A DNA stretch of 64,000 nucleotides. Origin: an uncultured Thermoplasmatales archaeon. GTDB taxonomy: Archaea; Thermoplasmatota; E2; UBA202; DSCA01. Each line of letters opens with the position of its first letter. Positions within the stretch are counted from its first letter, which is position 1. The notes beneath the pieces are model-generated. The model saw only the letters and a list, made by a program, of their open reading frames with translations. It had not been told where the DNA came from and did not search any database. The position numbers and the translations under genes are program-made. Below, one piece after another: positions 24,281-53,861 of this stretch. Where the stretch lies: assembly GCA_964414415.1 (NCBI GenBank), contig CAYPWJ010000005.1:11772-75771 (forward strand), read 5' to 3'.

Positions 24281-24579
24281 GGTCTGCCTCCCGGATGTAT
24301 GGCGGTCTTTTCTTTGTGTATGTCTCTTGAAGTCATTGTCTCCCTCACCGTCACTATCGCACGGCTGTTTTTAAAAGGTTTGTGACGCATATGGGTGGTA
24401 TGGGCTGTTGCCTGTATGCCGTCGCGGCGCCGAGATACCAGGGTTTTTATACGCCATATCCAGCAAAAATACCAGGTTTTATATAACATAAACTGTTGTT
24501 AATGCCACTGTACGCGATGTTCGGGATTCCATAGAGGCCGAGCTGCCGCTTCCCGAAACCGTGTATAGAAGGTGAGATA

Positions 24580-26082
24580 ATGAGCGATGACCGCCAGACG
24601 GAGGAGAACCCCCGGATGAGGCAATTAGCCCTCGAATCGTCGCTGAATCCGATCGCGCTCTCCGACCTCGACGGAGAGATCACTTATGTCAATCCAGCTT
24701 TCATGGAAACCTGGGGACACGACGACGAAAACGAGGTGCTCGGTCGGCCTGCAACGGCATTCTGGGCGACTGAGGGCAAAGCGAAAGAGGTGCTGCACGC
24801 GCTGCACGAGACAGGGAGATGGTTCGGCGAGATCATCGCCCGCCGCAAGGACGGCACCACGTTCCCGGTGCAGACCTCGGCCAGCGTGGTGACCAATGAA
24901 GACGGCGAAGCGGTCGGCATGATGGCATCCTTCGTGGACCTCAGCGAGCACGCCCGGATACGGCAGGCGCTGCACGAAACCGAGCGGAAATTCCGAGCCA
25001 TCATCAACAACTCGCCGATCGGCATCGCGCTGCTCGACGAGGACGGCGAGCTGCTGCTGAGCAACCTCGCCCTGCAGGACATGCTGGGGTACAGCGAGGA
25101 GAAGCTGCAGAACCTCGGGTTATCCGATCTCACGCATCCCGACGACGTGGAAAAAGACGAGACACTCTACCAGGAGCTCCACGACGAGGAGCGCACCTCG
25201 TATTCCATCGACAAACGCTTCGTCCGGCGGGACGGCTCCGTCATGTGGGGCGCACTCACCGTGGCGGTCATCCGCAACGAGGAGAACGCGCCGCAGAATG
25301 TCATCTGCATGGTGGAGGACGTCACCAAGGAAAAACGAATGGAGCAGGAACGCCAGCAGCTGCTGCAGGACCTGAAGCGGTCCAACGAGGAGCTGGAGCA
25401 GTTCGCCTACGTGGCGTCGCACGACCTGCAGGAGCCGCTCCGGATGGTGTCCAGCTACCTGCAGCTGCTGCAGCGCCGCTACCAGGACGAGCTCGACGAG
25501 GACGCAGACGACTTCATCGTCTACGCGGTGGACGGCGCCCGGCGGATGAAACAGCTCATCAACGACCTGCTCAAATATTCACGCATCACGACGCGCGGCA
25601 ACCCGTTCGAGCCGGTCGACATCTCCGGGCTCATGGAGGAGGTCGTCGACGACCTCCAGCAGCAGATAGCGGAAACAGATGCAGCGGTCACCCACGAGGA
25701 GCTGCCGACGATTACGGCAGACAAATCGCAGCTCCGCCGGCTCCTGCAGAACCTGGTCAGCAACGCCATCAAGTACCGCGGCGACGAGCCACCGGAGATA
25801 CACATCGGCGTCAGAGAGCAGCAGGATGCCTGGCGTTTCGCCGTCGCGGACAACGGCGTCGGCATTCCGGAGGAGCAGCAGGACCGCGTATTTGTCATCT
25901 TCCAGCGGCTGCACGGCCACGACGAGGGCGGCGGCGGGACGGGCATCGGCCTCGCATTGTGCAAGCGCATCGTCGAGCGGCACGGCGGAGACATCTGGGT
26001 TGACTCGGAGCCGGGCGAGGGCGCTACCTTTTACTTTACGATTCCCAAGGATTTGAAGGAAAAACAGGGTGAAAAAAAATGA
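24580..26082 (+). CDS. PAS-domain sensor histidine kinase (PAS x3, HisKA, HATPase_c)
   Basis: H-box FAYVASHDLQEPLR, then the N box (LVSNAIKYR), G1 (DNGVGIP) and G2 (GGTGIGLALCKRIV). Confidence 0.9.
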   Translation: MSDDRQTEENPRMRQLALESSLNPIALSDLDGEITYVNPAFMETWGHDDENEVLGRPATAFWATEGKAKEVLHALHETGRWFGEIIARRKDGTTFPVQTSASVVTNEDGEAVGMMASFVDLSEHARIRQALHETERKFRAIINNSPIGIALLDEDGELLLSNLALQDMLGYSEEKLQNLGLSDLTHPDDVEKDETLYQELHDEERTSYSIDKRFVRRDGSVMWGALTVAVIRNEENAPQNVICMVEDVTKEKRMEQERQQLLQDLKRSNEELEQFAYVASHDLQEPLRMVSSYLQLLQRRYQDELDEDADDFIVYAVDGARRMKQLINDLLKYSRITTRGNPFEPVDISGLMEEVVDDLQQQIAETDAAVTHEELPTITADKSQLRRLLQNLVSNAIKYRGDEPPEIHIGVREQQDAWRFAVADNGVGIPEEQQDRVFVIFQRLHGHDEGGGGTGIGLALCKRIVERHGGDIWVDSEPGEGATFYFTIPKDLKEKQGEKK

Positions 26083-26549
26083 ATGAAGAAGAGAAGGGCA
26101 CAACGATGGGAAAACCGGTTGAGATACTGCTTGTGGAGGACAACCCGGGCGACGTCCGGCTGACCAGGGAGGCACTGCAGGAGAGCAAGCTCCGGAACAA
26201 CCTCCACGTCGTCATGGACGGCGAGGCGGCCATGGATTTCGTCTACCAGCGAGGAGAATACGCCGACGAGCCGCGTCCCGATCTCCTCCTCCTGGACCTC
26301 AACCTGCCGAAGAAGGACGGGCGGGAGGTCCTCGAGGACATAAAGGGTGACGAGGAGCTGCGGAGCATCCCGGTGGTCATCCTGACCACGTCGGAAGCCG
26401 ACGAGGACATCGTCAAGACCTACAACCTGCATGCCAACGCCTACATCACCAAGCCGGTGGGGATGGAAAAGTTCATCGACGTGGTCAAGTCGGTGAAGGA
26501 CTTCTGGTTCACCATCGTCAAGCTGCCCGACGAGCGCCTGGAAAGCTAG
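26079..26549 (+). CDS. response regulator receiver (CheY-like, single domain)
   Basis: LLVEDNPGD...LLLLDLNLPKKDG...TTS with the phospho-acceptor Asp. ATGA overlap with the upstream kinase. Confidence 0.9.
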   Translation: MNEEEKGTTMGKPVEILLVEDNPGDVRLTREALQESKLRNNLHVVMDGEAAMDFVYQRGEYADEPRPDLLLLDLNLPKKDGREVLEDIKGDEELRSIPVVILTTSEADEDIVKTYNLHANAYITKPVGMEKFIDVVKSVKDFWFTIVKLPDERLES

Positions 26550-26556
26550 AGGGACG

Positions 26557-27576
26557 ATGCAAACCGACGTGCTGCTCGTGGAGGACAACCCCGGCGACGC
26601 CCGCCTCGTGCAGGAGATGCTCAGCAACGGCGGGAAAGACAGCTACGACATCACGCATCTCGATTGCCTCTCCACGGCGCTCGAGCAACTGACGGAGGCA
26701 CAACCTGATGTCATCCTGCTCGACCTCAACCTGCCGGACAGCCACGGCGCCGAGACGTTCGACAGCGTCGCCGACCACGATATCGAGCCGCCGGTCGTGG
26801 TGCTCACCGGCCTCGACGACGAGAGCCTTGCACTGCAGCTCGTCCAGCGGGGGGCACAGGACTACCTGGTAAAGGGGCAGCTCAGCCCGACGCTGCTCAG
26901 GAAGAGCATCGTGTATGCCATGGAGCGGCATGAGAGCAAGCAGCGGATAGAGGAGGTCGCCGAGGCGTTGCGGGTCATCAACAAGCTCATACGGCATGAC
27001 ATCATCAACAAGCTCCAGGTCGCGCAGAGCGCCCTCAGCCTCGCCCAGGATGATGCAGACGAGGCGATGATGCAGAAGGCGATGGACCGCGTTGGAGACA
27101 CAATCAGTCTGCTGCATCGCATGAAGGAGCTTGAGCAGCTGGTCGCCTCCAGCAAAACCGTGCAGGAGTACGACGCCCGTCAGGTCGCAGAGGAGGTGGC
27201 GGATCGATTTGACGTCTCCATCTCGCTGGAGGGCGACTGCGCCGTCACGGCCGACAAGGCGCTCTATTCCGTCATGGAAAACCTCCTGCGCAACGCGGTT
27301 GACCACGGCGGCAGCACCCATGTCGACATCTCCATGCAGCCGCATGACGGCACCTGCGAGATACGCGTCGCGGACAACGGCAGCGGCATCGACGATGCGA
27401 TAAAGCAGCGGGTGTTCAACGAGGAGTTCAGCTCGGGCGGCAGCGCCGGCTCCGGGCTCGGCCTCTACATCGTCAAGAAGACAATGGAGCGATACGGCGG
27501 CCGCGTGGCCATCGAGGACAACGACCCCCAAGGTGCAGTCATCGTGCTCACGCTTCCCAGGTGCTCGCCAGGATGA
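26557..27576 (+). CDS. hybrid receiver-histidine kinase (REC, H-box of RHDIIN type, HATPase_c)
   Basis: N-terminal REC (LLVEDNPGDARL...ILLDLNLPDSHG), H-box LIRHDIINKL and an ATPase with DNGSGID / GSGLGLYIV. Confidence 0.8.
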   Translation: MQTDVLLVEDNPGDARLVQEMLSNGGKDSYDITHLDCLSTALEQLTEAQPDVILLDLNLPDSHGAETFDSVADHDIEPPVVVLTGLDDESLALQLVQRGAQDYLVKGQLSPTLLRKSIVYAMERHESKQRIEEVAEALRVINKLIRHDIINKLQVAQSALSLAQDDADEAMMQKAMDRVGDTISLLHRMKELEQLVASSKTVQEYDARQVAEEVADRFDVSISLEGDCAVTADKALYSVMENLLRNAVDHGGSTHVDISMQPHDGTCEIRVADNGSGIDDAIKQRVFNEEFSSGGSAGSGLGLYIVKKTMERYGGRVAIEDNDPQGAVIVLTLPRCSPG

Positions 27577-30500
27577 CCGTCGTCCACACACTGTTGATAG
27601 AGGACAATCCCGCCGATGCCCGCCTGGTAGAGGAGATGCTCGCGGGGCTCGACGACATCCAGTTCGACATCACCATGCGGGAGAGCCTCGCCGACGGCGC
27701 CGCCTTCCTCGACGACCACGAGGCAGACGTGGTGCTCCTCGACCTCGGGCTGCCGGACAGCCAGGGCATGGAGACGTTCAAGTCCATGCATCAAAAGGCG
27801 CCGCTCGTGCCCATCGTGGTACTCACCGGGCTCAAGGACGAGGAGCTCGCCGTCGAGATGGCCAGGGAGGGAGCGCAGGAGTACCTCGTCAAGGACACCA
27901 TCAGCAGCGAGGTGCTCACCCATACCATCCAGTACGCCATCGAGCGGAAAAACGTAGAAAAACACATGCATCGGCTGAACAGCCTCCTGCAGGCGATACG
28001 AGAAATCAACCAGCTCATCGTCCGGGAATCCGACCCGGAGGAACTGATAACGCAGACATGTAACGCTCTCGCCTCGGTCAGCGACTATCATCACGTCCGG
28101 ATATTCCTAACGGACGAGCTCGGCGAGGCGCAGCTCGGCATCTGCGCCGACCAGGATGGGACGACGAAATACCCGGAAAGCGGTATACCTGTCTGCATGG
28201 AACGGGCGATAGCCGACAGCGACATAGTGGCCGTTGAAACCATGGGGTCTATGTGCAGCGAGTGTCCATGGAACGGGAGCTACGATGAGGAATACAACGC
28301 CGTCGCCATACCGCTGAGCTACCTCGGCAACGTGTATGGAGCGCTGTCGGTTCTCATCCCCACAGAGCGGCAGGAAATAGCGGAGGAGGAAGGCCTGTTC
28401 AAGGAGGTCGCCGACGACCTGGCGTTCGCCCTCTACGACCTCGAGCTGGAGGAAAAACACCGGGAGACGGAGGAGCGATACCAGCAGCTCGTGGAGAGCA
28501 CCCCGGGCCTGATATGCCAGCTCGACCCCGACGGGACAACGCGGTTCGTCAACAGCTACGTGGAGGAGCTCATGGGCTACACGGTGGAGGAGGTCGTCGG
28601 CGAGGACTGGTGGAGCCTGTTCTATCCCGGCGACACACGCGAACAGGTCGACGAGCTGTACGACCGCTTCAAGGCAGACGACGACGTCCGCGGTTTCGAG
28701 ATGGAGATGACGGACAAGCACGGGGAACGACACATCATCAGCTGGAACTCGTTCAACCAGTGGGAGAACGGAGCGCTACAGAAAATATTCGGCGTCGGCG
28801 TCGACGTCACCGAGCGGGAGACTTTTCTGGAAAAACTAAAAGAGAAGCATCGAGAGACGGAGGCCATGCTGGAGAGCATGTTGAACGCCTTCGTTCTCTT
28901 CGAGTCGGTTTTTGATGAAGATGGAAACTTCGTCAGTTACCGGTTCGTCTACATCAATAAAGCCTACGAGGAGATGACCGGTGTCAAGCTCGAGGACGTG
29001 AAGGGCAAGACGGTGCATGAAGTCTGGCCCGACACGGAGCCCGAGTGGATAAAAAGATATGGAGAGGTGGCGGTGACCGGCGAAAGTCAGACCTTCGACC
29101 TGTATCACGACCCCACCGGCAAGGTATATCACTGCAACGTATACCGGCCGTACGACACACAAGAGAAGTTCTGCGTAATCTTCGAGGATATCACCGACTG
29201 GAAGCAGGCGCAGCAGGAGCTCAAGGCACGCGAGAAAAAATTCCGGGAGATATTCCACAACGCCAACGACGCGATGTACCTCCACACGTTAACGGACGAC
29301 GGTATGCCGGACCGGTTCATCGAGGTCAACGACGTCGCCTGCGAGATGCTCGGCTACACCCGCGAAGAGTTCCTGGAGATGTCGCCGATGGACATCGACG
29401 ACCCTGATGCACCGACAGATGTCCCTGCAGTTATGCAGGACCTGCTGGACGAGGGACATGCCACCTTCGAGATGCGGCACGTGGCCAAGGACGGCTCCCG
29501 CGTACCGGTCGAGATCAGCTCCCACGCGTTTACCCTGAACGGCGAACAGCTCGTTCTCTCCATCGCCCGGGACATCACCGAGCGAAAGAAAAGACAAAGG
29601 CGACTTGAAAGCTCGCAAGAAATTGCACATGTCGGGAGTTGGGAAATAGACCTGGCAACCGGTGACCTCTCGTGGTCCGACGAGACATGCCGGATATTCG
29701 GAGTGCCGGTCGATGAACCGGTAGACTACGATACGTTTCTGGATTTCGTCCACCCCGAGGACCGTGATCATGTAGATGAAAAGTGGAACGAGGCGCTACA
29801 AACCGGGGAATACGACATTGAACACAGAATCCTGGTCGACGGCACAACAAAGTGGGTGCGGGAAAAAGCCGACATAACGTTTGACGGCCAGGGAGAGCCG
29901 GTCGAAGCAATCGGAAGCGTGCAGGACATCACCGAGCGGAAAGAACGGGAGAAAACCGAGCGGGAACTCAGGCAGCGCATCGAGGCGGGCCTGCAGGCTG
30001 GCAACCTGGCATGGTGGGAGATGGAGCTGCCCTCCGGCGACGTTGTCTTCGACGACCGGAAGGCAGAGATGCTCGGCTACGAGCCGGAGCACTTCGAAAC
30101 CTACGAGGACTTCACCGAGCTGCTGCACCCAGACGACTACGAACGGGCGATGCAGGCCATGCGGGACCATCTGCAGGGCCGGGAGGAGAACTACGAGGTC
30201 GAATACCGCATCAGGACCAGCGATGGCACCTATCGATGGTTCCGGGACGTCGGCGGCATCACGGAACGGGGTGAGGAGACAGGCCACACCAGGGTCATCG
30301 GCATCGTCGAAGACATCACCGAGCGAAAACAGGCACAGCAGGAGCTCGAAAAGCAGGAGCGGAAACTCCGGATGCTCTTCATGGAGACACAGAACCCCAT
30401 CCTGGTGGCAAACGACGAGGATGTACACGTCGATGCCAACCAGGCCGCCCTCGACTTCCTGGAATGCGACATGGAGACGCTGCGGGGAACAACCCCCTGG

Positions 30501-32228
30501 GACTGGGTGCCTCCCGGACGGCTTGAAAAGCAAAAAGAGGAGCATACGCCTTTCGAGGAGCCGCGCACGCTGGAAACTCCTTACTACGTGAACGGCCGGG
30601 TGAAGACGCTGCTGCTCAACGTCGTCCCGCTCACCATTGACGGGGAGACGCTCATCTACGGCATCGGGCAGGACATCACGGAGCGAAAGCAATACGAACG
30701 ACGGCTCCGGGAAACGAAAAACCGGTACCAGTCGCTGTTTGACAACTCCCTGGTAGGCAGCATGCTGACCACCCCTGACGGCGACATCGTTGAAGCAAAC
30801 AACGCCTTAACGACCATCCTCGGTTACGACAAAAGCGAGCTAGGAGAGATGGACGCGGCAGACCTGTACCGGGATGCATCCGACAGAGAAAAGATACGGG
30901 AACTGATGGAAAAAAACGGCATCCTTATGGGCTACGAGACAACCCTGCAACACCAGGACGGGTCAGATGTCACGGTTCTCCTCAGCATCTCGAAAGTCGA
31001 CATCGAAGGCAAACCGTTCTATCAGAAGACGTGCCTCGACATCACCCGGCGGAAACAGGTGCAGCGCGAGCTGCAGGAAAGCGAGGAGAAATACCGGGCT
31101 ATCGTTGAGGGCAGCCACGACGCCATCTTCATCTACCGCGGCGACGAGTTCCTGTTCGTCAACGACCGCGCGGCGGAGCTCACCGGGTACAGCGAGGATG
31201 AACTCATGGACCTGCCCATCTGGGACCTCATCCACCCGGACGACCTCGACATGGTGAAAGACGTCCACCGGAAATGGGTGCAAGACGAGGACGCGCCCAA
31301 CGTCTACCAGGCCAGGATAGTGACCAAGGACGGCGACGTCCGACATTGCGAGTTTTCGATGACGGCCATCTCCTACCACGGCAGGGAGGCAGCCATGGGC
31401 GCCGTCCGGGACATCACCCGGCAAAAGCAGGCGGAGAAGGAACGTGAGCGATACATCAACGAGCTCCAGTTCACCGCGGACACCATCATATCGGTAAGCC
31501 GTATGCAGGATGTCGACGAGATATGCCAGATGGTCGCCAGACAGGTACACGAGGTGAACGACGATGCAGTCGTTGCGGTGTCTCTGTATGACCCAGAACG
31601 GGAGGCCATCACCATCAGAGCGGTGGAAGGCATCGGAGACAGGACACAGCGGCTCTTCGACCTGTTCGGCTTCGACCCCACCGAGCAGAGCATTGGGCGG
31701 GAAAAAATGAAGGAAGCGTCGGGGCTCTACGCCACCGGCACCCTCGAGCAGGTGCCCGGCGGCCTCCACCAATTGATGGGCGGCACGCTGCCAAAGGCCG
31801 CCTGCAACGCTGCTGAAAAACTATTTGGGATAGACGCAACATACACCGTCGGCTTCGCCCTGGGCAGCGACATGCCCTACGGCGGTATATCCATCTTCGT
31901 GCCCGAGGGACAAGAGCTGCAGTATCCATCGGCCATCGAGACCGTCGCCAGCCACGTGTCGACGGCGCTGCAGCGCCGGCAGGCCGAGGAGGAACGCCAA
32001 AAAGCCCTGGAGGAGATGGAGCGTGCGCTGGAGCTCGAAAAGCATTTCAAGGCCGACGCGGCGCATTTCTTCCTCAACCCGATCGCCATCGCCAAGGGAT
32101 ACATGGAGCTCGGGATTGAGGAGATGCCGGAGGAATCCGAGGAGAAGATACATCGGGCGCGGAAGGCCATCAAACGGGTGGAGACGGTCATCAAAAACAT
32201 CGTAGAAAAAGGCGAAATACATGAATAA
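27573..32228 (+). CDS. giant multi-sensor protein: REC, GAF, about 8 PAS/PAC modules, and a C-terminal H-box dimerization region without an ATPase domain
   Basis: REC (LLIEDNPADARL...VLLDLGLPDSQG), GAF (SDYHHVRIFLTDELGEAQLG...), repeated PAS cores with recurring ITERK(Q/K)AE(E) linkers, and a terminal ...EKHFKADAAHFFLNPIAIAKGYMEL H-box. No N/G1/G2 ATP-binding boxes follow. The ATG at 27573 overlaps the upstream stop. Confidence 0.8.
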   Translation: MTVVHTLLIEDNPADARLVEEMLAGLDDIQFDITMRESLADGAAFLDDHEADVVLLDLGLPDSQGMETFKSMHQKAPLVPIVVLTGLKDEELAVEMAREGAQEYLVKDTISSEVLTHTIQYAIERKNVEKHMHRLNSLLQAIREINQLIVRESDPEELITQTCNALASVSDYHHVRIFLTDELGEAQLGICADQDGTTKYPESGIPVCMERAIADSDIVAVETMGSMCSECPWNGSYDEEYNAVAIPLSYLGNVYGALSVLIPTERQEIAEEEGLFKEVADDLAFALYDLELEEKHRETEERYQQLVESTPGLICQLDPDGTTRFVNSYVEELMGYTVEEVVGEDWWSLFYPGDTREQVDELYDRFKADDDVRGFEMEMTDKHGERHIISWNSFNQWENGALQKIFGVGVDVTERETFLEKLKEKHRETEAMLESMLNAFVLFESVFDEDGNFVSYRFVYINKAYEEMTGVKLEDVKGKTVHEVWPDTEPEWIKRYGEVAVTGESQTFDLYHDPTGKVYHCNVYRPYDTQEKFCVIFEDITDWKQAQQELKAREKKFREIFHNANDAMYLHTLTDDGMPDRFIEVNDVACEMLGYTREEFLEMSPMDIDDPDAPTDVPAVMQDLLDEGHATFEMRHVAKDGSRVPVEISSHAFTLNGEQLVLSIARDITERKKRQRRLESSQEIAHVGSWEIDLATGDLSWSDETCRIFGVPVDEPVDYDTFLDFVHPEDRDHVDEKWNEALQTGEYDIEHRILVDGTTKWVREKADITFDGQGEPVEAIGSVQDITERKEREKTERELRQRIEAGLQAGNLAWWEMELPSGDVVFDDRKAEMLGYEPEHFETYEDFTELLHPDDYERAMQAMRDHLQGREENYEVEYRIRTSDGTYRWFRDVGGITERGEETGHTRVIGIVEDITERKQAQQELEKQERKLRMLFMETQNPILVANDEDVHVDANQAALDFLECDMETLRGTTPWDWVPPGRLEKQKEEHTPFEEPRTLETPYYVNGRVKTLLLNVVPLTIDGETLIYGIGQDITERKQYERRLRETKNRYQSLFDNSLVGSMLTTPDGDIVEANNALTTILGYDKSELGEMDAADLYRDASDREKIRELMEKNGILMGYETTLQHQDGSDVTVLLSISKVDIEGKPFYQKTCLDITRRKQVQRELQESEEKYRAIVEGSHDAIFIYRGDEFLFVNDRAAELTGYSEDELMDLPIWDLIHPDDLDMVKDVHRKWVQDEDAPNVYQARIVTKDGDVRHCEFSMTAISYHGREAAMGAVRDITRQKQAEKERERYINELQFTADTIISVSRMQDVDEICQMVARQVHEVNDDAVVAVSLYDPEREAITIRAVEGIGDRTQRLFDLFGFDPTEQSIGREKMKEASGLYATGTLEQVPGGLHQLMGGTLPKAACNAAEKLFGIDATYTVGFALGSDMPYGGISIFVPEGQELQYPSAIETVASHVSTALQRRQAEEERQKALEEMERALELEKHFKADAAHFFLNPIAIAKGYMELGIEEMPEESEEKIHRARKAIKRVETVIKNIVEKGEIHE

Positions 32229-32658
32229 AAAGTGTATCCTCGTCGTGGACGACGAGCCGGACATCCAGGAAATCCTGCGGGCCTACCTTGAGCGCATCGA
32301 TACCGTCACGGCGGTGCCAGCGCTGAGCGGCGAAGACGCCGTTGCCACCTATCGAGAGCTCGCCGATGGCGGCAGGACGCCGGCGATGGTCGTCATGGAC
32401 CTCAACCTCTCCGGCAGCAACTCCGATGAAGAGATCATCGACGCGCATCGTGCCGGCGAAGGTGAAAGCATGGACGGCGTCCGGACCGCCGAACGCATTC
32501 TGGATGCCGACGGCGACGCCGTGATATGGGGCTACACGGCCTGGTCGGACACGGCGTGGGGCGACCGCCTGCGTGAGGCCGGCGCTCGGAAGGTCGTCGA
32601 CCGCACCGTCTCCTTCAAGGAGTTCGCCGGCATGGTGGAATCATTTATGGCGGAGTAG
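32221..32658 (+). CDS. stand-alone receiver domain protein with an insertion
   Basis: ILVVDDEPDIQEILRAYL ... VVMDLNLSGSNSDEEI. It overlaps the stop of the giant sensor. Confidence 0.65.
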   Translation: MNKKCILVVDDEPDIQEILRAYLERIDTVTAVPALSGEDAVATYRELADGGRTPAMVVMDLNLSGSNSDEEIIDAHRAGEGESMDGVRTAERILDADGDAVIWGYTAWSDTAWGDRLREAGARKVVDRTVSFKEFAGMVESFMAE

Positions 32659-32907
32659 CACGACGGCGCCGGTATCGGTACAAAAAGGCGGTCTGCAGGA
32701 GGATTGAGGTGGAGGCAAACGCCGTCAAAAAAAGTGACGAGTTTGGGGCTCAATCCTCCGTTGCCCTCTGAAAGGGCTGACCGACCGCACTATAACAACG
32801 GTTAATAATATATAAAACTTTCGTTTACTGGACCGGGTCGGGGCCCTGCGCAGGAAAACGACGTTCACGACTGCAAATGTTATATATCGTTCTCAGTTGA
32901 AAGACAC

Positions 32908-35634
32908 ATGAGGGATGGAGCGACGCAGAGACAGACCGGCGGAGAGCAGGCAGCAGTGTCCACCGGAGACCACGACCATCTCCCGCTCCCCTACCAGTCG
33001 CTCGACGAGCAGGGTCGCATCCTGGACGTCAACCGCTGCTGGCTGGACACCCTCGGCTACACACGCAGCGACGTCATCGGCACCTGGTTCGGCGACCTGC
33101 TGCCGCCCGGGCAGCAGCAAAAATTCAAAAAAATGTTCCCCCGGTTCAAGGAAGAGGGAAGCATCCATGGATGCGAGCTGCAGCTCCTGAAAAAAGACGG
33201 CGGCACCATCCGCGCCTCCTTCAACGGAACGATAGCCTACAGGGACGACGGCTCCATCGAGCAGACGCACTGCATGTTCGAGGACATCACGGCGCTGCAC
33301 GAGACGGAGGAACGCTTCCGCCACCTGTATGAGAATGCAACCGTCGGCCTGTACCGGACGACGCCCGACGGCAGGATACTCATGGCCAACCCCGCCGCGG
33401 TGGATATGCTCGGCTACGACTCCTTCGAGGAACTGGCAGGGCGCGACCTCGAGGACACGGGCTACGAGCCGGGCTACCCGCGACGCAGATTCAAGGAGAT
33501 GATTGAAGAGCAGGGCGAGGTCCACGGCCTGGAGAGCGCCTGGAAGCGCAAGGACGGCAGCACCATCTACGTGCGGGAGAGCGCCAGAGCCTACTACGAC
33601 GACGATGGCCACATCAAGTACTACGAGGGCAGCGTCGAAGACATCACCGAGCAGAAGGAGGCCGTCACGCAGCTGCGGCGGCACATGGAAAACATGGAGT
33701 ACATAGCGGGGACAGCCAGGGAGTTCATGGAGCTCGAAGGGAGAGAAAAAGCATACGACTACATCGCCAGCTGCATCCATCAGCGCGTCGAAGACGGCGT
33801 GGTCATCGTCAACTCCTACGACGAGGAACGAGAGCTCTCCCGCGTCGAAGCGGTAGCCGGCATGGACAAAAAGCTGGAAAAGATAAGCGAGGTGCTCGGC
33901 CGGCATCCCGTCGGCATGGAATTCCCCATCAAAGGCACGGCAAAGCAGGAGATGCTGTCCGGCCGCCTGATGACCGGTCCGTCCGGGCTCTACGAGCTCT
34001 CAGCCGGGACGATTCCGCGTCCCGTCGCCGCGATGCTCGACCGACTGGTGAACGTCAACCAGATATACGGCATGGGCCTCACGAGGAAGAATACCCTGTA
34101 CGGCAACGTCGTCGTCATCACCACCTCGAGCGACGCCCGGGTGGAACCCGAGGTGCTCGAGGCGCTGATAGGCCAGGCTGCCATCTGGCTGCAGCGACAC
34201 CAGGCTGTGCAGGCACTCCGGAGAAGCGAGAAAAAATATCGGACGCTGTTCGAAAACATGGCGCAGGGCGTCTTCTACCAGCGCCCCGACGGCACCTTCG
34301 TTGACGTCAATCAGGCCGCCCTTGACATGTTCGGGCTGACCCGGAGCGAGTTCCTGAACCGCGATTCGACGCATCCGGACTGGCACGTCATCTCTGAGGA
34401 CGGCGAGGAGCTCCCGCCAGATGAGCGTCCCTCACGGGTGGCGCTGTCGACCGGCAGACCGGTGACCGACGTCACTGTCGGTGTCTCCAGTCCGGACGAC
34501 GATAGCTACACGTGGATGAGCGTCAACGCCATCCCGCAATACCGGGAGGATGAAGACGAGCCGTATCAGGTGTTCGTGACCCTCCAGGACGTCACCGCTC
34601 GGAAGAAGATGCATGATGCGCTCGCCGACAGCAAACGGGAGCTGGAGCTGACCCTGAACGCGACCACCGACGGCATCTGGACGTGGAACTTCAAGACCGA
34701 GGAGATGGAGTTCAGCCCCGGCTACTACACGATGCTCGGCTACGAGCCCGGCGCGTTCGAGCCATCATTCGAAAACTGGGTCTCCCTCATCCATCCAGAT
34801 GACCGGGAGGAAGCGCTGGAGACCGCGGAGGAGTACCTGGAGACAAAGCCCGACCACTACGAAAACGAGTTCCGCCTCCGCACCAGGGACGGCGGCTACC
34901 GGTGGATTCGGTCGCACGCCCGCGTCGTCGAGCGCAACGACGACGGAGCGGCGGTCCGCATGATCGGCAACCACGAGGACATCACGGAACGCAAGCGGAC
35001 CCATCTCGAGCTCAAACAGTCGCTGGAAGAAAAAAAGGTGCTACTCCGGGAGGTCCACCACCGCGTGAAAAACAACCTGCAGGTCATCTCGAGCATGCTC
35101 CAGATGGAATCCAGCCAGCATGATGACCTAGAGGCGAGGCAGGCGCTGCAGGACATGCAGCTCCGCATCAAGTCCATGGGGCTCGTCCACGAACACCTCT
35201 ACCAGTCGCCGGAGCTCTCGCACGTCGACGTCCAGGAGTACCTCACCCAGCTGGCGCACAACGTCATGCAGACATACAGCCGCGGCGAGCATCCTGCGCT
35301 CGACCTCGACGTGCAGGAGATGGAGCTGCCGCTGGACAAAGCCATACCATGCGGCCTCGTTGCGACCGAGCTGCTGTCGAACGCCTTCCGGCATGCCTTC
35401 CCCGACGGTCAGGCGGGAACCGCCCGTCTCTCGGCTCGATGCAGCGACGGGAAATGCATCCTGACGGTGAGCGACGACGGCGTCGGCATGCCCGAGGATA
35501 CGAACGGCGAGACGCTCGGATTGCAGCTCGTCGACGTGCTCGCGGCGCAGCTGGACGGCACCGTCACGTTCACCGGCGAGGAGGGCACCACGGCCACCCT
35601 GACGTTTGCCATGCCCAGCGAGGTGACACCGTGA
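32908..35634 (+). CDS. multi-PAS sensor histidine kinase of HisKA_2 type (HATPase_c_2)
   Basis: At least 5 PAS/PAC repeats. H-box EVHHRVKNNLQVISSML is the HisKA_2 signature. C-terminal ATPase LVATELLSNAFRHAF...DDGVGMP. Confidence 0.85.
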   Translation: MRDGATQRQTGGEQAAVSTGDHDHLPLPYQSLDEQGRILDVNRCWLDTLGYTRSDVIGTWFGDLLPPGQQQKFKKMFPRFKEEGSIHGCELQLLKKDGGTIRASFNGTIAYRDDGSIEQTHCMFEDITALHETEERFRHLYENATVGLYRTTPDGRILMANPAAVDMLGYDSFEELAGRDLEDTGYEPGYPRRRFKEMIEEQGEVHGLESAWKRKDGSTIYVRESARAYYDDDGHIKYYEGSVEDITEQKEAVTQLRRHMENMEYIAGTAREFMELEGREKAYDYIASCIHQRVEDGVVIVNSYDEERELSRVEAVAGMDKKLEKISEVLGRHPVGMEFPIKGTAKQEMLSGRLMTGPSGLYELSAGTIPRPVAAMLDRLVNVNQIYGMGLTRKNTLYGNVVVITTSSDARVEPEVLEALIGQAAIWLQRHQAVQALRRSEKKYRTLFENMAQGVFYQRPDGTFVDVNQAALDMFGLTRSEFLNRDSTHPDWHVISEDGEELPPDERPSRVALSTGRPVTDVTVGVSSPDDDSYTWMSVNAIPQYREDEDEPYQVFVTLQDVTARKKMHDALADSKRELELTLNATTDGIWTWNFKTEEMEFSPGYYTMLGYEPGAFEPSFENWVSLIHPDDREEALETAEEYLETKPDHYENEFRLRTRDGGYRWIRSHARVVERNDDGAAVRMIGNHEDITERKRTHLELKQSLEEKKVLLREVHHRVKNNLQVISSMLQMESSQHDDLEARQALQDMQLRIKSMGLVHEHLYQSPELSHVDVQEYLTQLAHNVMQTYSRGEHPALDLDVQEMELPLDKAIPCGLVATELLSNAFRHAFPDGQAGTARLSARCSDGKCILTVSDDGVGMPEDTNGETLGLQLVDVLAAQLDGTVTFTGEEGTTATLTFAMPSEVTP

Positions 35635-36755
35635 CGTCCATCCTCATCGTCGAGGACGACATGATTACCGCCACGGGCATCCAGAAGATGGTGGAGCGAT
35701 GGGACTACGAGGTGGACGGCATCGTCGACACCGGCGAAAAAGCCGTCAGCGCCGATCGGGAGCACCAGCCGGACATCATCCTGATGGACATCCGGCTCAA
35801 GGGAGACATGGACGGCATCGAGGCAGCCCGCCGCATCCAGGAGCACCGAAGTGTCCCCGTCCTGTATCTGACCGCCTACGCCGACCGGACGACGGTGGAG
35901 CGAGCCGTCGACACCGGACCCTACAGCTACATCCTCAAGCCCTTCCAGGAACGGGAGCTCAGGGCGGCCATCGAGGTCGCCCTGTACCGCCATCAACGGG
36001 ATGAAAAACTCAGGGAGAGCAAGGAAGAACTCGACCGCATCCTGGAGGGAACCGGCGACGGCATCTGCGTCATCGACACCGACTGCACGGTCCGCCGCGT
36101 CAACCAGGCGTACGCGGCGCTCGTCGGGAGCAGCGAGAAAGAAGCGACGGGAAAACAATGCCACGAGGTGTTCCCCACCACCCTGTGCGACACGTCGAAC
36201 TGTCCGCTCACCCGTATAATGGAGGACGGCGAAGACGTCGAATACGTCATGGAACAAAAAGCCGGTGAAGGCCAGCACGTCCACAGCATCCTGACCGCCA
36301 CGCCCTACAGGGATAACGACGGTCAACTGCTCGGCATCATCGTCGCCGTCAAGGACGTCACCGACACCATCGGCCTTGCCACCGACGCGCAGCAGGCAAC
36401 GGCGCGCAAACGCCGGAAGGAACGGGCGATGGGCGGCAAGACTCCCTGCGCCATCCTCTCCTGGGACGTCCACCCCGCCATCCGCAAAGAGCTGGCCGAG
36501 CATCTCACCAAGCGAGGGCTCACCCAGAAGAAAGTGGCCGACAAGCTGGGCGTCAGCCGGGCAGCGGTCTCGCAGTACCTCTCCAAAAAACGCGGCGACC
36601 TCGTGGACTTCGACGAGTCGATGCAGCAGGCGTTCGACGAGTCAGCGCAGCGCATCATCGAGGGTGGCGATGCCGTGCGGGAGATGTGCCGGCTGTGCCG
36701 GCGTGTCAAAAAAACACTCGGCCTGGACCCCGAGAGCAGCACAGCGTCACGATAA
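35631..36755 (+). CDS. response regulator with REC, PAS and C-terminal HTH (DNA-binding output)
   Basis: REC (ILIVEDDMITATG...IILMDIRLKGDMDG), a PAS with Cys-rich region, and a C-terminal LTQKKVADKLGVSRAAVSQYLSKKRG helix-turn-helix. The GTG at 35631 overlaps the kinase stop (GTGA). Confidence 0.75.
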   Translation: MTSILIVEDDMITATGIQKMVERWDYEVDGIVDTGEKAVSADREHQPDIILMDIRLKGDMDGIEAARRIQEHRSVPVLYLTAYADRTTVERAVDTGPYSYILKPFQERELRAAIEVALYRHQRDEKLRESKEELDRILEGTGDGICVIDTDCTVRRVNQAYAALVGSSEKEATGKQCHEVFPTTLCDTSNCPLTRIMEDGEDVEYVMEQKAGEGQHVHSILTATPYRDNDGQLLGIIVAVKDVTDTIGLATDAQQATARKRRKERAMGGKTPCAILSWDVHPAIRKELAEHLTKRGLTQKKVADKLGVSRAAVSQYLSKKRGDLVDFDESMQQAFDESAQRIIEGGDAVREMCRLCRRVKKTLGLDPESSTASR

Positions 36756-46506: not shown

Positions 46507-47745
46507 TTAAGCGTTGCCGTCAACAGCTTGGTTCTGTCCTAAAAATTCTTGCAATCTATCTCTATTTGCCTCAGGAAATTTATCTTTATATAGCACTAAT
46601 ACTCGGTCTATTTGTGTAGCTTGGCCCTTTTTTTCATCTCCCCATATCCGACTGACTTTGTTTTCGGTGGGAAGTTTATCTTCAATGATTGAAGCAAGTT
46701 TAAACTGCGTGTGAGGAGCTACCTCTTCCCAGAGCACGTTTGCCAATTTTGTGTGTCTCTCTTCGTTTCTTTTTCCTATGTCACCGACAACGATTGCGGC
46801 CACGCCGTTATCTGCTAGCACCGACTCTATACTATGAAGGAATGTTAAGAAAAATTCGCCATAATTCCGACGGGAATATGCGTCGCTCAAACATTGGTCA
46901 ACTTTTTTTGGGTCAATATCAAGTAGCCATAGTCGAATCCAATTGTATTTCCCATATTTTATAATATTTATATAGGGAGGGGAACAAACCACCAATTTAA
47001 CGCTGTTTTTTTCAAAATATTGGTTTTGAATTGAGGGTAAATCTCTAACATCTGCCAGATATGCTTTTCCTCGATTTGCAGGCAAATCATCCTCATATAG
47101 CCTATCAAGTTTATGTCTCAAGTTGTCGAAGGCATCTAAAGGTAATTTTTTCAAATTTTTTTCTTTGATATAGTTTCTTACATAGTTGGGAGACATGCTA
47201 AAGGTGTTCGGCATACTTATGCTGAGATAACTAGAGGTGTTACCGGATTTGTGATGCTGACCGTGTAAAATTCCTGCTAAGCAAGCTAATAAGAATCTGT
47301 CAATATCATCATTTTTATCAAGATTGTTTTTCAGATATACTATCTGTTCCAAGGTGGATTCATGAAAAAGCATCGATATATCATCGGGAACACTGCGAAT
47401 GTTATCTCCCCCAAAGTTGGTAGATAGCTCTAATATTCTATCTAATGCCTCATCTTTAGTGGGGGGTTTGAGTTTAGCTTCTGTTATGAGATGCGCTAGA
47501 GGATTCAAGTCTACACCTACTCCAACTCTACCTTCAAGACATGCTTGCAAAGGGGTAGTACCACTCCCACAAAACGGGTCAAGCACAACATCTCCTTCGT
47601 CGCTAAATAATTGAATAAAGTAATGTGGAATCCTTGGAGGAAAACTTGCCATATAAGAGCACATAGAATGAAATGAGTGCCCCCATCTTTTCCGAAGTAA
47701 TCGCCAACGATTCTCATCCCACTTTGTTTTCGCCATTATATTCAC
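46507..47745 (-). CDS. DNA N6-adenine/N4-cytosine methyltransferase (N6_N4_Mtase-type motifs)
   Basis: AdoMet motif I block SFHSMCSYMASFPPRIPHYFIQLFSDEGDVVLDPFCGSGTT near the N-terminus and catalytic motif IV VVCSPPYIN about 190 aa later. Confidence 0.85.
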   Translation of the reverse strand: MNIMAKTKWDENRWRLLRKRWGHSFHSMCSYMASFPPRIPHYFIQLFSDEGDVVLDPFCGSGTTPLQACLEGRVGVGVDLNPLAHLITEAKLKPPTKDEALDRILELSTNFGGDNIRSVPDDISMLFHESTLEQIVYLKNNLDKNDDIDRFLLACLAGILHGQHHKSGNTSSYLSISMPNTFSMSPNYVRNYIKEKNLKKLPLDAFDNLRHKLDRLYEDDLPANRGKAYLADVRDLPSIQNQYFEKNSVKLVVCSPPYINIIKYGKYNWIRLWLLDIDPKKVDQCLSDAYSRRNYGEFFLTFLHSIESVLADNGVAAIVVGDIGKRNEERHTKLANVLWEEVAPHTQFKLASIIEDKLPTENKVSRIWGDEKKGQATQIDRVLVLYKDKFPEANRDRLQEFLGQNQAVDGNA

Positions 47746-50012
47746 AGATTCATGGACTCGGTGAGTCTCTCAATGGATATAAGAGAATGTATAATAGTTC
47801 TTGCGGCTCTTTGTAACTCTGACTCAAATACTTCCTCTGGTATGTCGGGGATGCCATCGGCCTCCATTTCCGGTAATTCTTCTTTTCGATAGAAGTGTTG
47901 TAACCACGCACAAAAAGCTACGTACACCGTATAGTTATCTTTGAACCGGTTTATCCATTTCTCAGAATAGCGTGATTTCTCCAGTTGCTCTTTAAAGTAA
48001 TGAAATTCCATAGAAACCAATATGTCTATTGAATCAGCCTCCTCTTTTACCTCTGCAACATTATTCTCGTCCCAACCTAACCTTTCCCACGCCGGCGTTT
48101 GTTTTGATACTCGTCTTATATTTGGAAGCGAGATTTTTCTTTTTGTCCCTTCTCCATAATCAGCTGTGGGTGGCTCTTTTACAATCCCTTTCCGTTCTTC
48201 TTTAAGTGGACTCTGATTTGGCCGGGTTAACACTGCTGTTATTGATACTTCCTCCCCTATTTCAGCTTCGTCAGATGTTTCTAAAAAGCAGCGAAGTCTT
48301 CCTCCATCAAAATAGGAATGTCCCCTAACATTTATGTGGTCTTCGGGCTCTATTAGCAACAATATTTTATTTTGTCGACTCAAATAACCATCTTCTGCAT
48401 CGCTCTCTATCTTCAATTGGGAAGAACGGCCTTTCACCAGAGGGATTGGATCTTGCTTATTTGCGATTTTTATGTAGGTGGGGATTTCCCGGGTCTCAAG
48501 AGGCTCTGGCGGGGTATAGCTTCCTCTCTTAGACGTTCCTGTCTGTGTTTTATCCCCAGAGGATGTGCCGCCTACAGTCTCGGTTTCCCCTCTAACGTAG
48601 TCAATTAATTTTCCTAATTCCTCTTTCAATTTTTGCGTTTCTTCTTCACTTGTCTCTGATAAAATCTCTTGGTGTCTTTGTTTCTCTAATGCCCTCAGAT
48701 CATCATCATTTCTTAAAGCGGTGCGGATAGCTTCCTCCATTTGATCACGGACCATACCTTTATTGAGCCTCTCACGTGTGGAACTAAATAATTCTCTCTT
48801 ACCTTTTGCAGTAAGAGTGTCACAACTTACCTCTACAATGAGATATTTTGATAAGTAGGGTAACTGTAATTTATTTCTGATAAAAGAGCGGGAAAGATAA
48901 CCATGGGTTTGCCCGTAATGAGTGAAGTAAATAGGGTGTCGTTTATCAACATAAGCCTCAACAGGATAGGACTTATCGGGATCATGCCTCAGTACCCAAT
49001 AACGGACTATCACTTTGCCATATTTTCCCGTAGGTCTTAAATTTACCTCACAGACGTCACTTTTTTCTATCAAATCACGTGGATCACTCTGCAGACGGGT
49101 ATAATTCCCAGCAATTGTCCTAGACTTAGTTTTCTTCCTATTATCCGTTACATAGACAGGCAGCACCGGATCAAATAAGGAACTTTGAATGAGCCACCAC
49201 AAACTGCCAGTAGGTGCTGTCAGAGTTGCTGAATATTTTGGAAGCTCAAAATCAATATGTTTGATGTAAGTGCCTTCAAAATTATTACCTAAACCCAACT
49301 CTGTTGGCGGAATTGTTAATACTTCATTTTCATCTGTTACAAGATACTCGTAAGTACCATTTTTGTATTTTTCTGGATCTCGTTCTCCATAACGGACGAT
49401 CGTCATACCTACCACATCTTCTGCGTCCTCCCCTAGTAAGTCGGGTGGACGGCGGGAAATAATAATTGTATATTTACTATATCTGAAAGTTGTCTGTCCT
49501 CCCTGGCCATAAGCTCCTGCTAGATATAGCTTAGTTAATTTATTACTCTCGTTTAGGCTTAAAAGAGTATTAGGAAAATCAAGCGGATGTTGCCCGACGC
49601 CTTTATCCCGAATTACCAGGGTAGGAGTTCTCCTTTTTGACCCTTTATACATTTGTATTTGGATATTATTTTTCGCCAATTTCCGTCTCTCTGTAGAGGT
49701 AAGAGTATCCAAATGCCCGGTTTTTACTCCAAACCATTCTTCTACCGCTTCCCTTGGATTATCCGGGTAGTTATCCATCTCCGGATTTTCAAGGGCAGCT
49801 CTTTCTAATATTGCATCAATGGCATTAGTGAGTCTCTCAATAAAGCCCTCCCCAGGATCTGCACCCATATTTATAACGCCAACATTGTTTTCTTTATCGC
49901 CCACCGGCCGCCATTGTAAGTTATATTTATCCTCTACTTTATTAATAAAACCCTCCATTTCGGTAGCTTCATTGATATTCAATAGTTCTTCCATCTCGCT
50001 TTCTGTAAACAT
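47742..50012 (-). CDS. large GHKL (Bergerat-fold) ATPase protein, prokaryotic MORC/paraMORC-like; C-terminal about 500 aa unassigned
   Basis: N-terminal N box GFIERLTNAIDAILERA (ExxxNxxDA), G1 box VIRDKGVGQ (DxGxG) and G2 box GAYGQGGQTTF (GxxGxG). The 4-nt overlap with the MTase suggests translational coupling. Same AT-rich codon usage. Confidence 0.7.
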   Translation of the reverse strand: MFTESEMEELLNINEATEMEGFINKVEDKYNLQWRPVGDKENNVGVINMGADPGEGFIERLTNAIDAILERAALENPEMDNYPDNPREAVEEWFGVKTGHLDTLTSTERRKLAKNNIQIQMYKGSKRRTPTLVIRDKGVGQHPLDFPNTLLSLNESNKLTKLYLAGAYGQGGQTTFRYSKYTIIISRRPPDLLGEDAEDVVGMTIVRYGERDPEKYKNGTYEYLVTDENEVLTIPPTELGLGNNFEGTYIKHIDFELPKYSATLTAPTGSLWWLIQSSLFDPVLPVYVTDNRKKTKSRTIAGNYTRLQSDPRDLIEKSDVCEVNLRPTGKYGKVIVRYWVLRHDPDKSYPVEAYVDKRHPIYFTHYGQTHGYLSRSFIRNKLQLPYLSKYLIVEVSCDTLTAKGKRELFSSTRERLNKGMVRDQMEEAIRTALRNDDDLRALEKQRHQEILSETSEEETQKLKEELGKLIDYVRGETETVGGTSSGDKTQTGTSKRGSYTPPEPLETREIPTYIKIANKQDPIPLVKGRSSQLKIESDAEDGYLSRQNKILLLIEPEDHINVRGHSYFDGGRLRCFLETSDEAEIGEEVSITAVLTRPNQSPLKEERKGIVKEPPTADYGEGTKRKISLPNIRRVSKQTPAWERLGWDENNVAEVKEEADSIDILVSMEFHYFKEQLEKSRYSEKWINRFKDNYTVYVAFCAWLQHFYRKEELPEMEADGIPDIPEEVFESELQRAARTIIHSLISIERLTESMNL

Positions 50013-53746: not shown

Positions 53747-53861
53747 GCACGTCTCCGGCGGATAATAAATGCACGTATAAACCATATAAAAATAATCCGA
53801 ATATTTATAAACAAGTATTACATTCATTATATGAACGCTCACAAAATGGGAGGTGCAAAAT

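Follow-up and report, generated by a model that had tools for sequence, protein, structure and literature searches.

A histidine kinase look-alike without catalytic domain and its candidate partner receiver in an uncultured Thermoplasmatales archaeon

The stretch of DNA analysed here, called the window below, comprises 64,000 nucleotides from an uncultured Thermoplasmatales archaeon (assembly GCA_964414415.1, contig CAYPWJ010000005.1, positions 11,772 to 75,771). Seven consecutive open reading frames (ORFs), p1 to p7, are all present on its + strand at 24580-36755, according to ORF calls and Pfam. The fourth of them, p4 (27573-32228, + strand), encodes a sensor protein of 1551 residues that resembles a histidine kinase but lacks the catalytic domain; according to Pfam, a PAS hidden Markov model (HMM) and a structure model it consists of a receiver (REC), a GAF domain, eight PAS domains, a GAF-like domain and a DHp hairpin. 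Our preferred reading, to which we give a probability of roughly 0.45, is that p4 has kept a functional HisKA-type DHp domain and would act as a signal-gated phosphatase or phosphoryl partner of the receiver p5, the next gene downstream, which would be fed by the kinase p3, the next gene upstream.

The terminal tail of p4 and its family

The first-pass annotation had described p4 as lacking an ATP-binding domain, and had named a profile search for a cryptic ATPase as the check to make. The search was made and the description stands. No HATPase domain was found in p4 with Pfam, NCBIfam or sequence and profile searches of the PDB, and AlphaFold2 modelling combined with Foldseek gave no GHKL fold. 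The protein ends 24 residues past the start of helix 2 of the hairpin, the next gene is already the receiver p5, and the N, G1, F and G2 boxes of GHKL proteins are not encountered. About 185 unannotated residues near the C-terminus were considered as a cryptic ATPase and rejected, as they form a GAF-like domain. None of the family members in 77 loci matched a HATPase profile built from the kinases of the present analysis. HATPase_c is likewise missing from the list of the 25 Pfam families that are most frequent in 90 tail-family members. That p4 cannot autophosphorylate alone, which had also been claimed, follows soundly from the missing ATPase in p4 and across the family.

What remains after the GAF-like domain is a tail of 75 residues (32001-32225, + strand) which, as seen with hhalign, PDB searches and AlphaFold2, contains only the DHp domain. 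It has the motif AAH-F-F-L-N-P-IAIAKGY, with His1498 at 32064-32066, and ends with KGEIHE right after helix 2; its H-box, AAHFFLNPIAIAKGY, spans residues 1496-1510. Pfam places HisKA at the extreme C-terminus of p4 with 20.3 bits, under the cutoff of 26.9 bits. An hhalign comparison with true HisKA DHp domains gave a probability of 98.75% and an E-value of 1.5e-16 across 68 columns, in which the His residues coincide, where the comparison set consisted of true DHp domains and p1, and five of its six sequences had been picked from weak profile matches. The DHp domains of KinB and ThkA were the best matches in the PDB, weak ones, again with the His aligned. At the weak end of the matches to a profile of the tail stand complete kinases; their Pfam HisKA domain occupies the same coordinates, and HATPase_c comes after it. 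By sequence comparison, the tail is a HisKA-type DHp domain that stops precisely where the linker to the catalytic domain lies in complete kinases. An HPt domain (PF01627) was not matched in p4 by Pfam at E <= 0.01.

The H-box noted earlier at the end of p4 is thus a genuine one, of HisKA type by hhalign. Its likeness to the RHDIINKL sequence of the neighbouring p3, which had been pointed out at the same time, did not hold up. The DHp domain of p3 is of a different type, with a weak match to SPOB_a, and the H-x3-N pattern that the two proteins share is superficial.

A comparison of 185 unique tails showed which residues are kept. The His is invariant (185/185), the residue at H+5 is Pro in 184, and at H+4 there is Asn in 175 and Thr in five. 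The position directly after the His, H+1, is of aromatic type (Tyr, His or Phe) in 175 tails, Phe in p4, and acidic (Glu) in only four. In four HisKA kinases the acidic residue at H+1 is required for kinase but not for phosphatase activity, and Thr or Asn at H+4 for phosphatase but not for kinase activity (Willett and Kirby, PMC3510030); the chemistry of the His also contributes to phosphatase activity (PMC7005713). The tail would be unable to autophosphorylate, because there is no ATPase and because the position beside the His holds an aromatic residue instead of the acidic one. From these residues, the tail family looks like a set of natural "kinase-minus, phosphatase-plus" DHp domains, and a role in phosphotransfer fits the same pattern. 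The bifunctional HisKA kinases CrdS, HK853 and EnvZ (PMC3510030) have a homologous DHp hairpin, in which the His and the Asn or Thr at H+4 are kept as in the p4 tail, but they have a catalytic domain, which is naturally absent across the tail family. The sequence pattern of p4, with no acidic H+1 and Asn at H+4, mimics HisKA mutants that were engineered to be kinase-minus and phosphatase-plus (PMC3510030).

When the last 265 residues of p4 were used in a database search, 12 proteins were found, and their common part is the last 75-85 residues, with 50-78% identity and the same ending. A profile of the tail, run against 1.84 billion representative proteins, gave 161 matches at E <= 1e-3 and 122 at E <= 1e-10. 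The strong matches end at the last residue in essentially all cases, in proteins that range from 71 to 1982 residues. Scanning one genome per GTDB species revealed 71 tail loci, and a single metagenome-assembled genome (MAG) can hold as many as seven copies or more. Among 77 non-redundant tail genes, taken from six-frame ORFs, there is no gap between the tail and the C-terminus in about 70, and a gap of 3-13 residues in the rest. The p4-like proteins of related MAGs have 1347 and 994 residues, with a tail identity of 79-85%. In the 90 family members, Pfam found PAS in 77, GAF in 26, REC in 14 and HisKA_7TM in four, as well as CHASE4, HAMP, SBP_bac_3 and MASE11. The named relatives of the key proteins come from Thermoplasmatota, Thermoplasmata or Thermoplasmatales MAGs, except for one locus labelled Hadarchaeota. 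The tail family has so far been seen only in Thermoplasmatota MAGs, and many sensor modules end in the same 75-residue tail.

The distribution of the tail also bears on whether p4 is a real gene. It could be a decayed or truncated kinase gene, or an artefact of assembly or of a frameshift, but the sole argument for this is the missing domain itself, and we find it highly improbable. A p4 product of 1551 residues is found in identical form in four independent assemblies (among them GCA_905333555.1, contig CAJOUV010000001.1) and the tail is terminal in the relatives, which argues against an assembly artefact. Decay is contradicted by the p4 stop codon, which is overlapped by the next gene, a conserved partner, and by the tail. 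In the 77 loci, as in over 120 clusters formed at 50% identity, the tail is terminal, and its conservation of 49-85% contrasts with the diverging sensor parts.

Archaeal "nonenzymatic HK-like proteins" ("HisKA, no HATPase"), with PAS and GAF sensors plus, at the C-terminus, a HisKA-like domain that carries a conserved His, have been described before (Galperin et al. 2018, PMC5847659). There are several paralogs per genome, mainly in Archaeoglobi and Methanomicrobia, P2CS labels them "possible incomplete histidine kinase", and the REC-PAS/GAF-HisKA type is exemplified by Archaeoglobus fulgidus AF_1472 (PMC5847659). The class was left uncharacterised and its partners unknown, with a role as phosphoacceptor, in phosphotransfer or as phosphatase considered possible (PMC5847659). 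p4 has every defining feature of this class, i.e. the N-terminal sensors, the C-terminal HisKA-like domain with its His, and no HATPase, and the likeness of the tail family to AF_1472-type proteins is drawn from the published description of their architecture. New compared with the published class are a tail family from Thermoplasmatota MAGs with an aromatic H+1 and a terminal GEIxE, a candidate receiver partner and a candidate type of kinase.

The searches also returned other kinase-less proteins. Five proteins of 71 residues (P0118, P0120 and P0122-P0124) consist of the tail module alone, and could be either stand-alone DHp proteins or genes with mis-called starts. A second kinase-less subfamily (L001 2964-4181 and 4178-4570; L018; L087 3778-5001; P0147 and P0153) combines a PRC-barrel or a CdvA-like coiled coil with PAS and a canonical HisKA H-box, SHEFFNPLCIAQGY. 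The HisKA domain is here C-terminal and above the Pfam threshold, and is followed by a receiver of 130 residues with an overlap of 4 nucleotides (nt).

The receiver p5 and its pairing with the tail

The ATG of p5 (32221-32658, + strand) lies 8 nt ahead of the p4 stop codon. The gene encodes a single-domain receiver of 145 residues from a special subfamily, in which the Pfam REC match is limited to residues 6-65. The AlphaFold2 model, with a predicted local distance difference test (pLDDT) score of 88.7, shows a (beta/alpha)5 receiver fold with an extra helix at 70-77, and its best Foldseek matches are Spo0F, RR468 and Sln1-R1, with a TM-score to the target of 0.87-0.88 for Spo0F and RR468. The acidic pocket (D10, D11), the phospho-Asp site Asp60 (VVMDLNLSG) and Thr106 are conserved. 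Past the phospho-Asp strand there is an insertion of about 20 residues (64-84) which carries a conserved H-R-x-G, and the protein has an IWGYTAW motif. At the end of beta5, Arg128 takes the place of the conserved Lys; this is likewise so in most of the subfamily, and a few homologs have the canonical K-P. The homologs form about 55 clusters of proteins with 140-150 residues, the named ones from Thermoplasmatota MAGs, and are annotated as hypothetical protein, response regulator or CheY-like only.

A p5-type receiver is the next gene downstream in 31 of the 74 tail genes with enough downstream sequence, typically with an overlap of 8 or 17 nt. Looked at from the receiver, a tail gene comes directly before 32 of the 33 p5-type receivers with the best scores, but this figure is biased by ascertainment since the loci had been fetched through the tail, and six contexts were hence re-sampled through the receiver. 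In two of these a tail gene is found upstream (L085, L086), in two others there is a kinase with an RHDxxN core but no tail gene (L083, L084), and in the last two the receiver is an orphan (L080, L082). A metagenome scan with an alignment of the receivers was dominated by matches to the generic DDEPDI pattern, and gave only two to three true family members. The pairing of tail and receiver is frequent but not obligatory.

The two partners also occur as one protein. The metagenomic P0134 (430 residues) is a natural fusion of a transmembrane segment, PAS, tail and receiver, and its p5-like receiver has a VYGYTSW motif. The identities of tails and receivers are correlated (r = 0.72, reached by none of 1000 partner shuffles), although such a mirror-tree correlation is partly phylogenetic, which weakens the case for a pairing, and it is used here only together with the matched subtypes that coexist in single genomes. 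There are two of these, HFFLNPIAIAKGY in the tail with DDEPDIQEIL in the receiver, and HHFFNPIAISKGY with DDEQDIQDIL. It had been suggested that p4 could be a general hub for the surrounding proteins. The recurrent adjoining receiver, the fusion and the co-divergence point less to such a hub than to the downstream receiver p5 as a likely dedicated partner of p4.

It was also possible to compare what stands in one and the same slot in different genomes. Directly after the gene for the large subunit of DNA polymerase II (DP2) there is a MASE11-tail protein in one lineage (L001 8001-8888), and an orphan p5-type receiver in another (L080/L082 7001-7435).

The structural relatives of p5 bring up the question of a Spo0B-like phosphorelay, in which His1498 would take the phosphoryl group from the N-terminal receiver of p4, or from p2, and hand it over to p5. 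In that case p4 would be a fused relay of Spo0F-Spo0B type, and its throughput would be gated by the PAS and GAF signals. The best Foldseek matches of p5 are indeed relay receivers (Spo0F and Sln1-R1) and a hybrid-kinase receiver bound to an HPt protein. A relay would need the invariant His and could dispense with the acidic residue, the N-terminal receiver of p4 is intact and 49% identical to that of p3, and a phosphoacceptor or phosphotransfer function is among those named as possible by Galperin et al. (PMC5847659). Spo0B and ChpT are, like p4 as far as its sequence and model tell, helical-hairpin carriers of a His without kinase activity that exchange phosphoryl groups with receivers. They have, however, a C-terminal pseudo-ATPase alpha/beta domain and no sensors, whereas p4 lacks this domain, ends after helix 2 and has about 1470 residues of sensors, and it is the neighbour p3 that has the Spo0B-like H-box (RHDxxN), while the p4 tail is HisKA-like. 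A receiver domain within the same protein occurs in only 14 of the 90 family members, so an intramolecular relay is no general mechanism, and a single-domain protein without output domain, as p5, is an odd terminus for a relay. Furthermore, the Asn or Thr at H+4, which is the phosphatase signature, is conserved. We regard a relay as conceivable but rather doubtful.

The unusual features of p5 could also be taken to mean that no phosphoryl group is exchanged at all. The tail would then be a pair of helices for dimerisation or docking, a decoy or scaffold that sequesters p5 or titrates kinases. Dimerisation and protein-protein interaction were suggested by Galperin et al. for REC-PAS/GAF-HisKA proteins, and both the Arg in place of the conserved Lys and the insertion beside the active site of p5 would agree with it. 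It is difficult, however, to explain the absolute conservation of the His, and the near-absolute conservation of Asn, Pro and Gly, in 185 tails without catalysis, and p5 has kept its acidic pocket, Asp60 and Thr106. A role independent of phosphorylation appears quite improbable to us.

The source of the phosphoryl groups

The closest kinase to p4 is p3 (26557-27576, + strand; 339 residues), in which a receiver is followed by an RHDIINKL-type DHp domain and HATPase_c (Pfam Response_reg 71.5 bits, HATPase_c 84.6 bits, and SPOB_a weakly with 24.5 bits). For 11 tail genes a same-strand kinase of this type, with an RHDxxN core, lies no more than 700 nt away, placed upstream or behind the receiver, and such kinases adjoin p5-type receivers also where the tail gene is absent (L083, L084). 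A same-strand HATPase kinase of any kind lies within 700 nt of 18 of the 77 tail genes. No stand-alone gene for an ATPase domain was seen in any of the 77 loci. One of the loci without a tail gene has an operon (L084 3946-7450) in which a multi-PAS RHD-type kinase, a predicted membrane protein of 90 residues and a diverged p5-like receiver follow one another, all with overlapping stops and starts.

Gene anatomy, homology of the tail, missing ATPase, residue pattern and gene pairing are what was observed, and the following model can be proposed. The tail of p4, unable to autophosphorylate, would instead act on the dedicated receiver p5, most likely by signal-gated dephosphorylation of p5~P or by transfer of the phosphoryl group back to His1498. 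The adjacent RHDxxN-type kinase p3 would phosphorylate p5. The paralogous receivers that p3 and p4 carry are probably phosphorylated by p1, which may feed p2 as well, because these two receivers share 49% identity and that of p2 is 31-32% identical to both in pairwise alignments. The eight PAS domains, two GAF domains and receiver of p4 would integrate further inputs and in this way decide how long p5 stays phosphorylated. The recurring unit would combine a kinase of RHDxxN type with a kinase-less HisKA sensor and an Arg-variant receiver, represented in the window by p3, p4 and p5. What we infer in this model is the direction in which phosphoryl groups flow, that p4 has phosphatase activity, and what p3 does.

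Several observations weigh against this model. A pure His-Asp phosphotransferase would account for the conserved residues just as well, since the His, though not the acidic residue, is needed for phosphotransfer too. The Arg-for-Lys exchange and the loop insertion in p5 could mean an atypical phosphorylation chemistry, or none. There is no adjoining p5-type receiver in 43 of the 74 tail genes, orphan p5-type receivers are found in two different metagenome samples (L080, L082), and 59 of the 77 loci lack a same-strand kinase gene within 700 nt. Co-transcription is deduced from the gene overlaps only. A literature search for experimental work on such kinase-less proteins gave only the census and a 2026 preprint on the opposite class (HATPase, no HisKA).

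The kinases beside some of the tails could have a different function, if their ATP-binding domain phosphorylated His1498 in trans. The kinase would then be split, with p3, p1 or p6 providing the ATP-binding domain, and p4 would be a normal phosphodonor for p5. The isolated DHp domain of EnvZ, "domain A", is a system with which the p4 tail can be compared, and it can be phosphorylated in vitro by a separate catalytic domain. The 18 tail genes near a same-strand HATPase kinase, often with overlapping stop and start codons (L004, L012, L014 and the window), are in line with this. But the adjacent kinases have a DHp domain of a different type with a His of their own, the acidic residue at H+1 is lost in 181 of the 185 tails, 59 loci have no kinase nearby, and stand-alone ATPase-domain genes were not seen in any locus. 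A split kinase seems improbable.

The same 59 loci would be compatible with yet another explanation, namely that tail and receiver make up a self-contained His-Asp unit which works without any GHKL kinase. All the residues catalytic in His-Asp exchange are conserved, and the Arg-variant receiver, with its His-bearing insertion, could for example be charged by a small-molecule donor or by a non-GHKL enzyme. We consider this unlikely. If it were true, dozens of catalytic-domain-less sensors per lineage would act purely by gated removal or exchange of phosphoryl groups, and whole lineages would have changed over from control by kinases to control by phosphatases or transferases.

The sensor domains of p4, the other genes and significance

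The N-terminal receiver of p4 (27591-27926, + strand; residues 7-118, Pfam 61.2 bits) has kept the acidic pocket, the Asp, the Thr and the Lys. It is followed by a GAF domain (28029-28433, + strand; residues 153-287), which matches Pfam GAF_2 with 29.2 bits and GAF with 26.0 bits, and by the PAS array (28464-31427, + strand; residues 298-1285). The array was recognised with Pfam PAS families and an HMM built from the PAS domains of p1, p6 and p7, which gave eight domains, and eight DITERK-like motifs were found; each domain closes with a D(I/V)TxxK linker. The earlier description of p4 as a REC-GAF-(PAS)n protein was right about the architecture, to which the eight PAS and the second GAF-like domain can now be added, but not about the length of 1552 residues. 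From the ATG at 27573, which forms an ATGA overlap with the p3 stop codon, the protein has 1551 residues; a GTG at 27561 would give 1555.

The GAF-like domain (31440-31988, + strand; residues 1290-1472) has no match in Pfam or NCBIfam and is a paralog of residues 258-433 of p6 (BLASTP E 4e-15). The AlphaFold2 model of the last 265 residues of p4 (pLDDT 75.5) shows an alpha/beta GAF-like domain, a helix of 66 residues and a helical hairpin (H166-231, H234-260). The top Foldseek matches are GAF domains of phytochromes and cyanobacteriochromes and the dual-sensor kinase 6oaq. In the dual-sensor REC-GAF kinase (PDB 6oap/6oaq) receiver and GAF inputs reach the DHp domain via a long signalling helix, as in p4, but this kinase is complete with an ATP-binding domain. 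The domain of about 185 residues is common to p4, the true kinase p6 (about 33679-34206) and kinases of other MAGs (L014 1793-2395). Pfam and NCBIfam are blind to it, and AlphaFold2 and Foldseek place it with the phytochrome-type GAF domains, with an insertion of 40 residues that is modelled with low confidence.

As for the remaining genes, p1 (24580-26082, + strand) is a PAS-PAS-HisKA-HATPase_c histidine kinase of 500 residues (Pfam HATPase_c 110.5 bits, HisKA 47.8 bits, two PAS), with an ortholog of 79% identity in L010, and p2 (26079-26549, + strand) is a single-domain receiver of 156 residues and "LLVEDNPGD" type (Pfam Response_reg 72.4 bits). After p5 come p6 (32908-35634, + strand), a kinase of 908 residues with four PAS, a GAF-like domain, HisKA_2 (93.1 bits) and HATPase_c (44.7 bits), and p7 (35631-36755, + strand), a REC-PAS-HTH regulator of XRE type with 374 residues (Pfam Response_reg 91.8 bits, PAS_4 68.6 bits, HTH_3 29.9 bits). 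The top NCBIfam match of the p7 receiver is the PhyR family, with 99 bits. The start of p7 is the GTG at 35631, in a GTGA overlap with p6, instead of the ORF start at 35349. ORF calls and Pfam thus bear out the seven same-strand genes with the domains first assigned to them, and the overlapping stop and start codons are there as well, of 4 nt at p1/p2, p3/p4 and p6/p7 and of 8 nt at p4/p5. p2 and p3 are spaced by 7 nt.

The view of the cluster as a single cascade with the HTH regulator as its output was not borne out. The p3-p4-p5 unit recurs elsewhere without p1 and p2 or p6 and p7, a promoter-like gap of 249 nt precedes p6, and p6 and p7 resemble a pair of their own; the HisKA_2 kinase and the PhyR-like receiver look like a separate cognate pair of kinase and transcription factor. 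The cluster is probably three adjacent modules rather than one proven cascade. AT-rich, promoter-like boxes were read by eye, as sigma-70 promoter models are unsuited to an archaeon. The p5-p6 gap (32659-32907, + strand) has AT-rich TATA-like sequence at about 32801-32822 and 32879-32890, and is a possible internal promoter for p6-p7. Upstream of p1 (24281-24579, + strand) there are AT-rich TATA-like elements at about 24443-24490 and a GGTGA ahead of the ATG, and this region is likely to be the promoter of p1-p5. The cluster is partially conserved in three related MAGs, as p1-p5 in L010 and as p4-p7 in L006 and L009. It is flanked by a divergent DJ-1/PfpI gene on the left and by a peptidase C1 gene at the other border.

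The G+C content of the window is about 0.62. Rfam gave no RNA element in it at gathering thresholds, and its one tRNA-Pro is far from the cluster. On the - strand there is a low-GC island (46507-50012, 0.41-0.45 vs about 0.62), with an ORF for an N6/N4 DNA methylase (46507-47745) and an overlapping ORF of 756 residues (47742-50012) without Pfam match, which is probably a horizontally acquired restriction-modification-like pair. Two adjacent NosD/right-handed beta-helix repeat proteins, of 785 and 539 residues, are encoded at 53853-57772 on the + strand, with a G+C content of 0.52-0.59. In a related Thermoplasmatota MAG, a contig that also has a pair of kinase and kinase-less sensor carries a bacteriorhodopsin-family gene (L004 11518-12168).

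"Histidine kinases" without a catalytic domain are routinely misannotated as kinases, and the diagnostic pattern is a His and an Asn at H+4 that are kept while the acidic residue at H+1 is lost. With its relatives, the locus offers a candidate trio for cloning, the kinase p3, the kinase-less sensor p4 and the receiver p5, with which a role as phosphatase, relay or decoy becomes directly testable. The census of Galperin et al. counted only three histidine kinases in 11 Thermoplasmata genomes (PMC5847659), and it appears from the present loci that some uncultured Thermoplasmatota carry expanded two-component repertoires.

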